64,000 nt of DNA, from positions 4,388 through 68,387 of IMG/VR virus record IMGVR_UViG_2907795743_000002, one strand, 5' to 3'. A program made the position numbers. The DNA is from a virus. This document shows, piece after piece, positions 36,001 through 48,000 of this stretch (positions within the stretch are counted from its first letter, which is position 1; every line of letters starts with the position of its first letter).

Positions 36001-39000
36001 GGCATCGAGGCGGGCTATGTCAACGACCCGACCGATCCAGGCGGCGAGACAAAGTATGGGATCAGCAAGCGCGCGTATCCGAACGCCGATATCGCGAACA
36101 TGACGCTCACCGGCGCGCAAGCGCTCTATGAGGCCGACTACTGGCGCGCGTGCTCATGCGACCAAATGCCGTGGCCGTTATGCCTGTTCGTGTTCGATTG
36201 CGCCGTCAACCAGGGCCAACCGATCGCGCGGGTGATACTGCAACGCACGCTCGGCGTGAGCGCGGACGGCGTGGTCGGCCCCGTGACGCTCGCCGCCGCC
36301 AATCGCATGAGCGACGAGCAACTCGCGTTGCTTCTGACCGCGCGCGCGATGCGCTACATGCTCGCGCCGAATTTCCAGGTCGACGGGCGCGGATGGTTCA
36401 AGCGCCTTTTCCTGATCGCGTTCAATCACGGGGGTTGACATGGCATGGTCCGATGCATTGAATGTGCTTGAACGCGTTGCGCCGACCATCGCGACGGTGG
36501 CCGGCACGCCCTTGCTCGGCGGCGCCGTGGCCGCGCTCGAAGCGGCGTTCGGTCTGACGCCGGACGCGGGCGCCTCGATGGAGCAACGACAAAACACCGT
36601 GGCGCAATGTGTCACGGGCGCGAGCCCGGAGCAACTGCTCACGCTGCGCAAGGCCGATCAGGATTACGAAGCGCGCATGGCCGAGGCGGGCTTCAAAGAC
36701 AAAGAGACGCTCGCGCAATTGGCCGTGCATGAAGAGGAAATCTATGTCGGCGACCTGCAAAACGCGCGCGCGGCGAACGCGGCGAACATGCGCGTGTTCT
36801 GGCTCGGCGTGGCCGTGCTCGCCACGTTCGCGGGGGTCTCGTTCGGCGCCCTGTTCGGCGCCTACGCCGTCCTGACCGGCAAATTACCCGTTGACAATGC
36901 CGCCGTTGTCGGGCTCGTGTCCGGCTTCATTGGCACGGTCATCGGCTATGTCGCGTCGAACGCCACGCAGGTTGTCTCGTTCTACTTCGGATCGAGCAAG
37001 GGAAGCGAGACGAAATCCGAGGCGATGGCCACAGCGTTCACCCAGGTTTTCGGCAAGGCCCCGGCGCCCGCCAAAAAGCCGGCCGCATAAAAAAAGCGGC
37101 CCGCACGCGGCGGGCCAAAATCCGCGTCTGAGAGTGAGCGCGGAATTCCGAGGCAATCTACCTGCTGCAAAGCAGGCTCCGCGATTATGGGGCGAATGCT
37201 CCGCGTGACAAAGGTCAATCTGCCAGATCAGGTACGCGACCATTGGCGGGTAACGCTTACCGCCGATGTTCGGCCTACATCAAAACCGGGCAAATCTGAC
37301 AGACAATGCCCCGCCGTCCCCATACAATGCCTTCTGTCGGGTTCCCTATCGGGGAGCCGGCTACGGGGGAAAGGGGCATGAAATGGAGACGCAAATTGAG
37401 CGGCGTCGTCGCACGCTCACGGCTGAGGATATTGCGGCCCTGGTAGATGCGATGGAGACGCGCGCGATGGATCGAATCCAAAAAACGGTAGGACGGACGA
37501 TGCTTAACTTCGCTGTCACCTGGGTCGTCCGGCTTGTCTTTGCGGCGGCGCTCTATAGTGCCGGCGCGTCGGGCGTCCTGCGCCGCATCTTCGCGGCATA
37601 ACTGGCATCACCGCAAAAGCAAAGCCCCGCATCGCGCGGGGCCTTTGCATTCCCAGGGCCGAAGCCCCGGCGCGTCAGACTTGCTCGCGCCAGATACGCG
37701 CATCCTCGACCGATTCGAAGGCGCGAAACCCTCCCTCGACCTCGATGATTTCCGCCGCCCACGGCGCCGCCTCGCGCGCCTGCTCGATCGTCTCGCATTG
37801 AATAAATTCGGTGCGCATCATATCCCCCTCAGTCATGTAACCCGCGATTGTCCAACCCCGCATTATGCAGGGCGACGACGACCGTTTCCGCAACCGGCGC
37901 AATCACGCGATACGCGATCGAGCCGACATAGACGATTCCAATCAGCCATAGTGCACCATAAAAAATCCGAATCGCTTTCATTTCCCCTTCCCCGTCTTAA
38001 TCAAGAACAATTCCCAAAACGCGACGTGCATGGTGCGCTCGCCGGATTCCCATCGTTGCCACGAGCGCAAGTCGACATGCACCAACGCCCCGGCCGCCGT
38101 CTGCGTCAGGCCGGCCGCATCGCGTGCGGCGCGCACCTGAGCAGGGGTCGGCGGAACCGGGATCGGCTTCATTGCTCGCCTACAGGTCGAATTCGTCCAT
38201 GCGGCAGACGGCGACGATACCGCCTTCGTCATCGTGCAACGTGCACGCGTAGACATCGGCACGAAGCGGCGCGCGCTTGAAAATGTACGGGCTTGACCGG
38301 CTCGTATCGTCCGCGCCGAACGCGAACACGATAACGGCATCGTTTCCGTGACGCGCGGCCTTGCGGAATCCATCGAACATCGCATTCATGGCTTGACCTT
38401 CCCCGATCGCCCCTGGCACTACTTTGAGGTTTTCCATTTTGTTCCCCTTTACTCGATCTAGCCGATCGCGGTGGTTAGTCAAATCGCGTTGTCTGTCGCG
38501 TAGGCCGGCGCGTCCTGGCGCAGACTGCCCGTGAAGAAGTAGATGCGCTTCCAGATCACTTCGCGCGTCAGGAATTCGCAGTTGTCGATTGAGTTACCAA
38601 AGTCGTCCATCTTGTTCCCCGTTCCGGCTCGGCGGGATGCCTTGCCCTGAGCCCCTACATTACGACCAATGGTCGCATGCGGTATGTGCGCTAGTATACG
38701 TCCAATGGTCGTATCCACGTCGGCGCCGGACGATCACCAGGGAGCAACATGGGGAAGGCCCGGCGACGGGCCAGAATCGGCCCAGGCGGGGCCGGCGACG
38801 ATGGCGAGGGGTAAGGGGCAGGGAAGGACGCGGGCGGCGCTACGGGCCGCGATTGAGGGCCGCGTGGGTTGGTCCGTTTTTGGTATGCTACCGGCCGGAA
38901 ACCCGCGCGGTGCCTAGCTCGTGAGGGGGTTCGAATCCCCCTCTCTCCGCCAGGAATATCTAAGCCCTTGATTCTTCAAGGGCTTTTTTCTTTGGTTCAC

Positions 39001-45000: not shown

Positions 45001-48000
45001 TCGAGACACGGGACGAAACGCGTACGGCTTTGGCGAACGTTACGATGAATCATACTTGTCAACTCAGTCCTAAATTTGGGAGTTGGTATGGATATGAGCT
45101 GCGACGCGACGTAACGCTGATCGAGGAGACCACTCTCGGAGTGAGCCCGCCGTCCCCATCTCGACTGGTTTGGAATCTTGAGGCTAAGACCTGCTTCATC
45201 GACACGGGAAAGGGGAGCGTCCTCCTGATTGGAGTTAATTCCGCTGACGATTACGCAACAGCAGCTTCATTGGGAGCCGCCGCCGTCCTTGTTGATTCCC
45301 CAGCGCAAGCGCGACATTGGCCAACACAGGTTAGTATGCCCTGAACAATGAGGCCGGCCGGAAAAATGGAAGCCAACGTTTCGTAAAATCGAGAAACGGA
45401 GGCATGCATGAATCGAATTCCAAGAGCGGTCTATACGAAGGAGCTACGCTGTCGGGCGCAAAGTAATAATGAGCCACTTTGTGCGAAGTAAATCTGAGCC
45501 ACCTTTCAGTGCAGTCAACCTTTTGCGCGCAAAGGCTGGCGATGCTCCAGAAGGAACAGTGGATGCAAATCCATGTGCTCAAAGCCCAAGGCGTATCGGA
45601 GGGAGCGCGAGATCACGCGGCGCCTGGGCATTTCTCGCAACACGGCGGGCGCGGTACCTGTCGGCCGAGGAAGTGCCGCGCTACAAACCGCGTGAACCGC
45701 GACCAACCAGGCTCGGAGCGTTCGAGGCGTACATCCGGCGTCTGATCCGCGAGACTCGAATGGAGCCGTTTGCGGTTATACAGATCGATGTATTCGCCGA
45801 TGGAACGCCGGGCGCTGATTGAGGAGTCGCCGTCGTTCGGGTATCGGACGCTCGCGCATTTGCTTGGGTTCAACAAGAACACGGTGCAGCGAATCTTCCG
45901 ATTGATGGGCTGGCAGGTTCGGATGCGGCCGATTGGCTTTCGGCCTCGCGTACAAGCCATGCCGTCGGTGGCGACTGCGCCGAACGAACGCGGGTCGACC
46001 GATATGCGCCGCGTTTGGGCGGGTCGTGATGGGTGGGTGACGCTGGCGCGGGTGATCGATTGCCATACACGTGAACTGCTTGGCTGGCATTTGTCACGTA
46101 GCGGTAGGGCCAGCACAGCCTCGAGCGCGTTGGAGCATGCGCTGATCGCCCGGTTCGGCACACTCGGGCGTGTGCCTAAGCCGTTCCTGCTGAGAAGCGA
46201 CAACGGGCTAGTTTTCACCAGCCGCGACACACGGCTCTGGTACGCAGTTACGGTCTGCGGCAGGCGTTCATCACGCCGCACTGCCCGCAACAGAACGGAA
46301 TGGTCGAGCGCGTGATCCGCACGCTCAAGGAGCAATGCGTACACCGACACCGCTTCGAGACGCTGCAGCATGCCAGCCGCGCCATTGCCGACTGGATCCA
46401 GTTTTACAACCATCGACGGCCTCATCAGGCGCTGAAGATGAAAACGCCGGCTGAGGCATTCGCGTTAGCCGCTTAACCTGAGCAGGTTCCGTTGGGTCAT
46501 TACACCTCTACCTAGCCGGCGCGACGAAATTGAGCAGTACCGCAGCGGTCGTAAGCGGTTCGCCCATGAAGTAGATCGCCGTATAGATCTCGCCCGGCGA
46601 CAGCGTTACGCCCTCCATCACCACGCTGTCGTCAGTGACGTCTGCCGCGACCTTCACGCGTGCTACCGAGGCAGCCGCATTGTAAGGACTCGCGCGTCCT
46701 CGCCACAGTCCGACCCAGTTGCCTGCGGTCGCGGGCAGATAGCCCGACAACGTGTGGTACCGAAACGTAAGCGATGTCGCGCCGACCGACGCGAGCAGAA
46801 GCGTAACGGTGTCCACAACGCCCGTCGAGCCGTCGGCGGCGAGCAACGCCGATGCGCAAACGTCGTCGACTTCCGGCCCGACCGCATAGCCTACCGTGTA
46901 CGGCGTGGCGCTGATCGACACTCCGGTCATCACCACCGTTCCGAGTTCGGCGTCGGTCGGAATGCCGAGCCGTGCCGCGGGCGCGATCGACCACGGTACG
47001 ACGCTGCTTTGCCACAGCGCGACGAAGTCTCCATAGAGCTTCGGCTGATTCCCAGGCAGCCCCGCATAACTGACGTCGACGGTCGTGCCGGACGAGCCGG
47101 TAATGACCGCGGCGCACACGGACACCGTGGACGCTGCCGGCTGCGCGAGCGCCTGCGCCGCGGCGACGCCGGCGAGCAAGCCCCACAGGAGCGGCGCCGC
47201 GACGAACGCGCACAACGCGCGGTCGCGGCGCGCTAGCGGCATGGCAGCGGCGGGACCACCTGCGCGATGGACAGCATCAATCGCCGCATCCGCAGCAACG
47301 GCATCGGCTGGCCGGTAAGATTCGACATCAGCGTCAGATCCATCCAGAGTGTTCCGCCGCCCGTCGGTTCGTATGTGGAGAACCACGTTTCGATCGCGGC
47401 AGTCCAGTCAGCGGTCATTTTCGCGATGGTGCCCGCGCCGGTTCCGGCGACGTCGACCGTCAGCGGCGCCTGCATCAACACCGGCAACACGATCTTATCG
47501 AGCGCGGCGTTCAGCGCATATCCGTATGTCACCTCCACCTGTGCGACGATCTGCGGCAGCGTGTCGCCGGCGAGCAGATAGGCAAAGAGCGCGTCGAAAT
47601 GCTCCTGAAGCGAACGCGTCACCGGCGTACCGGACGGGATCGCCGCCACATCGATGATCGCATTGGCGTCGTTGGTCGGATACAGCGGGCTGGCGAAGCG
47701 CACTTCGGGCGTCGTGTAGACAAACGCGTCAGCCGACGGTTTGCCCGGAACGAGTTCGCGGTTGCGCTCCACCCAGACGGTAGACCACGCGTCCTGGCGC
47801 TGCAGGATGTCGAGCGCGGGCAGCCGCACCGTACGGCCCGGAATGTTCTGCCCGTTCGCGGCGCTCAGGTATGAACCCTCCGGCCCGGGGCCGGCCTTGC
47901 GCTTGTACACGTAGTGGAAGACATCGCCGGCCTTCTGCGTGTCGCCAGGCGGCTGCCAAGGCTGCGCGTCGTACAGCGCCGGATCGATTTCGACGACCGG

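Follow-up and report, generated by a model that had tools for sequence, protein, structure and literature searches.

A probable scar zone of older integrations beside a prophage at the tRNA-Ser(GGA) hot spot (GI13) of Burkholderia pseudomallei chromosome 2

The DNA studied here is a 64,000-nucleotide stretch (the window), positions 4,388 to 68,387 of the IMG/VR virus record IMGVR_UViG_2907795743_000002, and it belongs to chromosome 2 of Burkholderia pseudomallei, where it lies next to tRNA-Ser(GGA), downstream of acs-DUF4212-actP. Between a prophage and a giant operon lies a run of gene remnants, at about 38895-46480, that a reading of the sequence alone (the original prediction) had taken for a degraded island targeted to a tRNA, with the phage integrated later in tandem and the giant operon perhaps carried as cargo. 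We put the probability at about 85% that this region is a fixed scar zone that forms the distal side of the integration hot spot at tRNA-Ser(GGA), the published GI13 locus. The observation behind the original prediction was confirmed and its interpretation partly supported. The locus and the mechanism are already published, and the features in the window are real but ordinary.

The GDPD and metallophosphoesterase proteins encoded in the window have residue-exact matches in many B. pseudomallei and Burkholderia mallei chromosome 2 assemblies, and three loci of assembly GCA_002110965.1 are 100% identical to the window. At loci L001, L004, L011 and L014, an intact tRNA-Ser(GGA) of 90 nucleotides (nt) lies 3' of actP, the order in prophage-free strains being acs, DUF4212, actP, tRNA. 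The text of Tuanyok 2008 (PMC2612704) places GI13 next to the chromosome 2 tRNA-Ser in all five strains compared, with different content in each, and gives a 14-bp repeat for GI13 of strain K96243. The window locus likewise adjoins the tRNA-Ser on chromosome 2 and has strain-specific content.

The junction between the prophage and the scar zone consists of the following features.

1..38924, plus strand: prophage, the right-hand ~39 kb of a ~46-kb lambdoid siphophage-like element, with its integrase and left attachment site (attL) ~7.4 kb left of the window.
38925..38956, plus strand: right attachment site of the prophage (attR), the 32-bp direct repeat GGGGGTTCGAATCCCCCTCTCTCCGCCAGGAA, made up of the last 28 nt of tRNA-Ser(GGA) and GGAA.
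38962..38991, plus strand: terminator-like hairpin (38962-38985) and T-run, supplied by the old integrase element.
39003..39028, plus strand: 13-bp direct repeat GACAGGTGTCCCA, two copies, between the hairpin and the integrase start.
39048..40140, plus strand: pseudogene of a DUF6538-type tyrosine integrase, with a TTG start and DUF6538 and SAM-like domains.

The partial tRNA 3' end that the original prediction had placed at the prophage boundary proved to be real. Bases 38895-38924 are phage DNA, and the 28 nt at 38925-38952 are identical to positions 63-90 of tRNA-Ser(GGA); k-mer mapping found one copy in the window, where no chance match is expected. Neither ARAGORN nor Rfam identified an intact tRNA in the 64-kb window. 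The left end of the prophage was reached by a look-up of its exonuclease protein, which covered 10 kb left of the window. At locus L097, actP is followed by an intact tRNA-Ser, 24 bp and then the stop codon of a 416-amino-acid lambda-type integrase (Int), so the intact tRNA and the matching direct repeat that the original prediction had proposed to look for are both present there. The repeat GGGGGTTCGAATCCCCCTCTCTCCGCCAGGAA, which occurs once in the window, is identical at both prophage ends (attL was read in L097), and the prophage therefore spans ~46 kb between two copies of a 32-bp repeat. This is the arrangement of a tRNA-integrated prophage, with an intact tRNA and Int at one end and a tRNA 3' repeat at the other. 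The prophage is polymorphic at the site, being absent from L001 and L011 and present in L010, L013 and L097-L099.

The prophage-free strains carry the main evidence that something older lies behind the phage. L001 and L011 each have, directly after the intact tRNA, a hairpin and a frameshifted integrase remnant identical to those of the window (100% over window positions 38925-39711 in L001 and 38925-39240 in L011). The pseudogene begins 96 bp past the tRNA CCA in these strains, in the same orientation as the tRNA. Since prophage-free strains hold the identical frameshifted remnant, the remnant predates the phage, which supports the idea of tandem integration at one tRNA.

We then characterized the remnant against its intact homologue P0295 (579 amino acids, 64% identity, with a Phage_integrase domain), found in a profile-free search of 1.8 billion representative proteins. 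Relative to P0295, the pseudogene runs in frame 0, passes to frame +1 near 39195-39205 and returns to frame 0 near 39430-39440, giving two frameshifts. Its end corresponds to residue ~384 of the 579, just past the box-I Arg (TGGRISEL), and so it keeps that residue of the catalytic set (R, K, H-x-x-R, H/W, Y) and has lost the others; only strain L001 retains the C-terminal catalytic part. With a single catalytic residue and two frameshifts, the window copy is a remnant and not a working gene. Its GC content of 0.58 and its third-position GC content (GC3) of 0.69, against a GC3 of 0.90 to 0.92 for acs and actP, make its composition unlike that of the host, and the lower-GC, twice-frameshifted and truncated integrase of the original prediction is thus borne out. 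One B. thailandensis strain has another DUF6538 integrase, of 618 amino acids, 63 bp from the same tRNA end; at 28% identity over the C-terminal part only, it was too distant to serve as the frameshift reference, and P0295 was used instead.

P0295 belongs to a metagenomic element (L124) that has MobC/NikA, relaxase and ArdC genes alongside. The DNA upstream of P0295 (L124/L125) retains the hairpin, in which a C/G change is compensatory, together with the repeat motif ACAGGTGTCCCAGACNGGTGTCCCA and the TTG start, and in front of this unit stands TCCCCGTCCACTCCGCCA, similar to a tRNA 3' end but with no tRNA body. The 13-bp repeat is kept at L124 9958-9982 and in all strains that retain the integrase remnant. 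L014-type strains have a different sequence after the tRNA and no hairpin. Because the hairpin and the 13-bp repeats are conserved upstream of P0295, the hairpin belongs to the attachment arm of the island. The hairpin 3' of the tRNA is island-derived, not chromosomal, and the original prediction, right about the tRNA end itself, was mistaken in assigning this hairpin to the tRNA as its own terminator. The 13-bp repeats are candidate binding sites for the integrase or for a regulator.

Rightward of the integrase remnant, the scar zone contains the following.

40141..40570, minus strand: fragment of a Band_7/SPFH gene (E = 1.7e-8), a piece of a GI13-type island.
40577..40765, plus strand: C-terminal fragment of a transposase of the IS110 family of insertion sequences (IS) (E = 2e-13).
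40956..41208, minus strand: left-end remnant of an IS3-family element, with an orfA helix-turn-helix at 40956-41108 (E = 3.7e-11).
41165-41208: 19-bp tandem repeat, 2.3 copies, present in all strains seen.
41374..42834, plus strand: intact metallophosphoesterase gene, a second copy on chromosome 2.
42834..44255, plus strand: intact, essentially full-length gene for a CCP/MauG-type di-haem peroxidase, likewise a second copy.
44207..45400, plus strand: low-GC insert with a GDPD gene, present at every B. pseudomallei and B. mallei locus seen.
45770..46476, plus strand: IS3-family orfB remnant with one frameshift near 46300; other strains have extra IS insertions here.

The original prediction had recognized most of these features, and each of those it named was recovered: the band-7 fragment, the IS110 and IS3 fragments, the 19-bp tandem duplication, the low-GC GDPD gene in AT-rich spacers and the disrupted IS3-like element. 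It had passed over the metallophosphoesterase and peroxidase genes, which are of high GC content, host-like, and make up 38% of the interval it described. On the minus strand, the 19-bp repeat reads TGACCCTAGCCCACAAAAC twice and looks like a duplicated outer terminal inverted repeat of the IS3 remnant. The DNA at 45400-45770 is debris without an assigned family; a reading of 45540-45760 as the 5' fragment of an IS21 istA gene found no support in Pfam or NCBIfam.

Comparison between strains locates the edge of the fixed part of the zone. The block from 40553-40569 rightward is common to nearly all strains, and it is joined by other DNA at 40957 in L001, at 40854 in L011 and at 41188 in B. mallei. 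The Band_7 fragment is 99% identical to sequence in L004-L009 and L014, where ~5 kb of DNA (BrnT/BrnA and other genes) intervenes before the sequence that matches the window from 40569 onward (the IS110 fragment). Partial tRNA ends measure 14, 17, 18 or 28 nt in different strains and 30 nt in B. thailandensis. These differing lengths indicate that several distinct elements used the site and that their remains were merged by deletions.

Two further observations concern the junctions themselves. In every strain the Band_7 fragment breaks off at one and the same nucleotide (window 40141; L014 3834); what adjoins it is the integrase in the case of the window and the inside of an IS3-type orfB in the case of L014-type strains, and the junctions have CCAG in common. 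In B. mallei (L002/L003), a complete IS3-family element replaces everything left of 41188, and tRNAs of an rRNA operon (Ile, Ala) lie 5 kb off; this arrangement fits an IS-mediated rearrangement.

Several points weigh against the account of a scar zone built up by successive integrations. The breakpoint at 40141 is shared with strains whose left partner differs, and the order in which the Band_7, IS110 and IS3 junctions arose is no longer recoverable. The DUF6538 element has kept no attR that would mark out its original extent and cargo. The left end of the prophage lies outside the window itself and is known from assemblies that are 100% identical to it (L010, L097, L115).

The two host-like genes in the middle of the zone are extra copies. 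The core metallophosphoesterase/peroxidase pair lies elsewhere on chromosome 2, at 1.82 Mb in K96243 and others (L105 10001-13095), with the same arrangement in Burkholderia multivorans; the pair at 41374-44255 is therefore an additional one. The metallophosphoesterase of the window shares 86% amino acid identity with its core chromosome 2 paralogue. The peroxidase is 79% identical to its core paralogue and 87.5% identical to the B. multivorans protein, and this closer kinship with B. multivorans suggests import rather than local duplication. An open reading frame (ORF) for the peroxidase starting at GTG 42834 had no exact protein match, and the version starting at 42993 was matched. The last ~15 codons of the peroxidase run into low-GC DNA, the insert beginning near 44207. 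The GDPD gene within that insert (44412-45344) has a GC content of 0.52 and is flanked by spacers of 25 to 45% GC.

The right flank of the zone is formed by the giant operon.

46508..64000, minus strand: four-gene operon of 17.5 kb, the distal flank of the hot spot, encoding p230, p1187, a 4131-amino-acid protein and p244.
63308-64000, minus strand: p230, paralogue of p244.
59612-63175, minus strand: p1187, with its start at ATG 63175.
47233-59628, minus strand: the 4131-amino-acid LysM/Big_5 protein; LysM and Big_5 are the operon's only Pfam hits.
46508-47242, minus strand: p244, paralogue of p230.

The mutual paralogues p230 and p244 (31% identity) bracket p1187 and the 4131-amino-acid protein. 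An ORF of 1192 amino acids for p1187 had the wrong start and no exact protein match; the version from ATG 63175 was matched.

How the integrase remnant and this operon came to lie where they do admits other explanations. One is that the remnant is unrelated debris beside the prophage end, an option that the original prediction had left as its alternative. The IS fragments around it could indeed have moved DNA, yet the short distance between the remnant and the tRNA and their shared orientation in prophage-free strains, the conservation of hairpin, repeats, tRNA-end-like core and integrase start as one unit in a homologous mobilizable element, and the presence of a same-family integrase so close to the same tRNA end in B. 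thailandensis all argue against coincidence, and we reject this explanation as highly improbable. The suggestion that the DUF6538-integrase island carried the giant operon as cargo, and possibly all the DNA from the integrase remnant rightward, is very unlikely as well, if less so. In its favor, the integrase reads toward the operon with no core gene between, and the GC3 of the operon (0.80 to 0.84) falls somewhat below that of the core genes left of the tRNA (0.90 to 0.92). Against it, neither a tRNA repeat of at least 12 nt nor a 17-mer with up to 3 mismatches, either of which could mark the far boundary of the DUF6538 element, occurs downstream in the window or in the ~9 kb beyond it, where the original prediction had proposed to look for a second copy of the tRNA 3' segment. 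In B. thailandensis, the operon (97% nucleotide identity, with homology from window 46510) lies with its p244 stop codon ~750 bp from a tRNA fragment, lacking this integrase and lacking the 6.4 kb of window 40141-46509. That segment is therefore confined to B. pseudomallei and B. mallei. The sole DUF6538 integrase seen in B. thailandensis is the distant one described above, and the homologous intact element, L124, has mobilization genes and not the operon. The original prediction had itself named an intact tRNA and integrase at the prophage left end, with no second repeat downstream, as evidence against its proposal, and this is the arrangement that we found.

The operon may instead have been acquired earlier, by an ancestor of the pseudomallei group, on an element with a lambda-type integrase that used the same tRNA, later elements accreting in between. 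Fragments of lambda-type Int do flank it. B. thailandensis has a C-terminal fragment (residues 246-389, 58% identity) between the tRNA fragment and p244, and B. pseudomallei has an Arm-DNA-bind_2 N-terminal fragment (residues 25-66 of phage Int, E = 7e-6) just past p230, at L116 8507-8632, ~0.2-0.7 kb past the right edge of the window at 64000. The reading direction of both fragments is toward the tRNA. Earlier acquisition also agrees with the slightly low GC3 of the operon, with the flank of Burkholderia sp. ABCPW 14, where sbcCD adjoins the TPP-enzyme, yjbH and yjbF genes and the operon is absent at the matching place, and with the relatives of the giant protein. Searches with its C-terminal 900 amino acids returned, outside its own cluster and among the matches listed, only proteins of at most 61% identity, all from metagenome-assembled genomes or soil metagenomes. 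The p1187 and giant genes are again found as a pair, at 39 to 53% identity, in 22 contigs from soil and peat metagenomes (52 to 71% GC). At the best-matching metagenome locus (L126 4885-5524), 79 bp separate the end of the giant gene from the 3' end of an intact tRNA-Ser(CGA), and a tRNA-Ser(GGA) lies ~0.5 kb further on. Set against this, 13 of the 14 metagenomic loci checked have no tRNA near the relative of the giant gene, no attachment repeat is found, the N-terminal Int match is short, and the two Int fragments come from different species, each missing in the other. An insertion of the operon into a single integrase gene was rejected on similar grounds, residues ~67-245 being missing and the two fragments never occurring in one species. 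Like core DNA, moreover, the operon is fixed across all strains, and the two species share it at 97% identity. The linkage of actP to tRNA-Ser(GGA) recurs in Paraburkholderia and Caballeronia among the matches listed in a scan of genome contigs with ActP as the query, and is therefore old; those matches include no pseudomallei-group genome, and none of the window genes follows the tRNA in them. On balance, it is possible but rather doubtful that the operon is an ancient module, gained by horizontal transfer via tRNA-Ser(GGA) in the ancestor of the pseudomallei group, which would make the locus a multilayer array of at least three element generations and the p1187/giant gene pair a rare, uncharacterized module scattered across soil bacteria.

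We return to the reading that we favor, a scar zone left by successive elements at one hot spot. When elements integrate one after another at a single tRNA, the older ones are driven outward, and decayed integrases and partial tRNA repeats stay behind. Tyrosine integrases recombine a core that copies the tRNA 3' end, the newcomer rebuilding the tRNA with its own copy and displacing outward the prior tRNA 3' end and everything behind it. The evidence shows that an older mobilizable DUF6538 element integrated first and placed its hairpin, 13-bp repeats and integrase beside the tRNA. Its integrase then decayed by two frameshifts and afterwards by strain-specific deletions, while IS110 and IS3 fragments and pieces of other GI13-type islands replaced its body or came to overlie it. 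Later still, in this strain, the ~46-kb lambdoid phage integrated through the 32-bp core, leaving attR at 38925-38956 in front of the left end of the old island. The second metallophosphoesterase/peroxidase pair and the low-GC GDPD gene were presumably acquired earlier, by B. pseudomallei and B. mallei only, and IS-associated events probably fixed them in the space that separates the hot spot from the operon. The operon itself would be a stable flank shared with B. thailandensis and not demonstrable cargo of the DUF6538 element.

The remaining prophage features are these.

2543-3439, minus strand: RecE-like exonuclease, among the recombination functions encoded in the genes up to 3439.
35965-36438: endolysin, among the lysis functions at 35965-37090.

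A prophage ORF at 35564-35956 contains three repeats at 63-bp spacing (35690-35853). The 30-bp repeats at 4585-5009, inside the replication-protein gene 4046-5437, may be origin iterons.

The GI13 hot spot at tRNA-Ser(GGA) contributes to the differences between B. pseudomallei strains, and a tandem arrangement is the expected outcome of repeated site-specific integration; beyond annotation, the present findings carry little weight. The fixed boundary of the variable zone, at ~40553-41190, should be useful when GI13 variants are delimited, and the giant operon is the only part of the region possibly worth more study.

Known systems match the locus at several levels. Mobilizable DUF6538 elements such as L124 share with it a 64%-identical integrase, the hairpin, the 13-bp repeats and a tRNA-end-like core; unlike L124, the window keeps only the left end and two-thirds of the integrase, with no mobilization genes. 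Compared with tandem accretion at tRNA hot spots, the older layers here have lost their repeats, and the newest layer, the prophage, is the only one formally delimited. Two Burkholderia siphophages are known from the same site: the attP of phi644-2 comprises 30 bp of the 90-bp tRNA-Ser(GGA) (Ronning et al., PMC2920897), and phiBt-TXDOH integrates at tRNA-Ser(GGA) on chromosome 2 of B. thailandensis (PMC13026187). Both use the same part of the tRNA as the window prophage (30-bp attP in phi644-2 versus the 32-bp repeat here), and a lambda-type Int adjoining the tRNA is a further shared feature. The window prophage is nevertheless a different phage from either. Its Int is 54% identical to that of phiBt-TXDOH, its structural genes reach at most 71% nucleotide identity to phi644-2 over 15% of the query, and a megablast search with 25 kb of the prophage against deposited phage genomes gave no match, so that at the DNA level the prophage has no close relative among deposited phages. 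GI13 and its variants GI13.1-13.4 (Holden 2004; Tuanyok 2008, PMC2612704) are described, in the text of these sources, at this same locus, with short direct repeats of the tRNA 3' end and strain-variable content. The DUF6538 pseudogene, the element-borne hairpin and the fixed block of metallophosphoesterase/peroxidase and GDPD genes are not mentioned in the main text of the GI13 papers. The 14-, 17- and 18-nt tRNA fragments and the Band_7/BrnTA island of other strains fit the GI13 description as given there.

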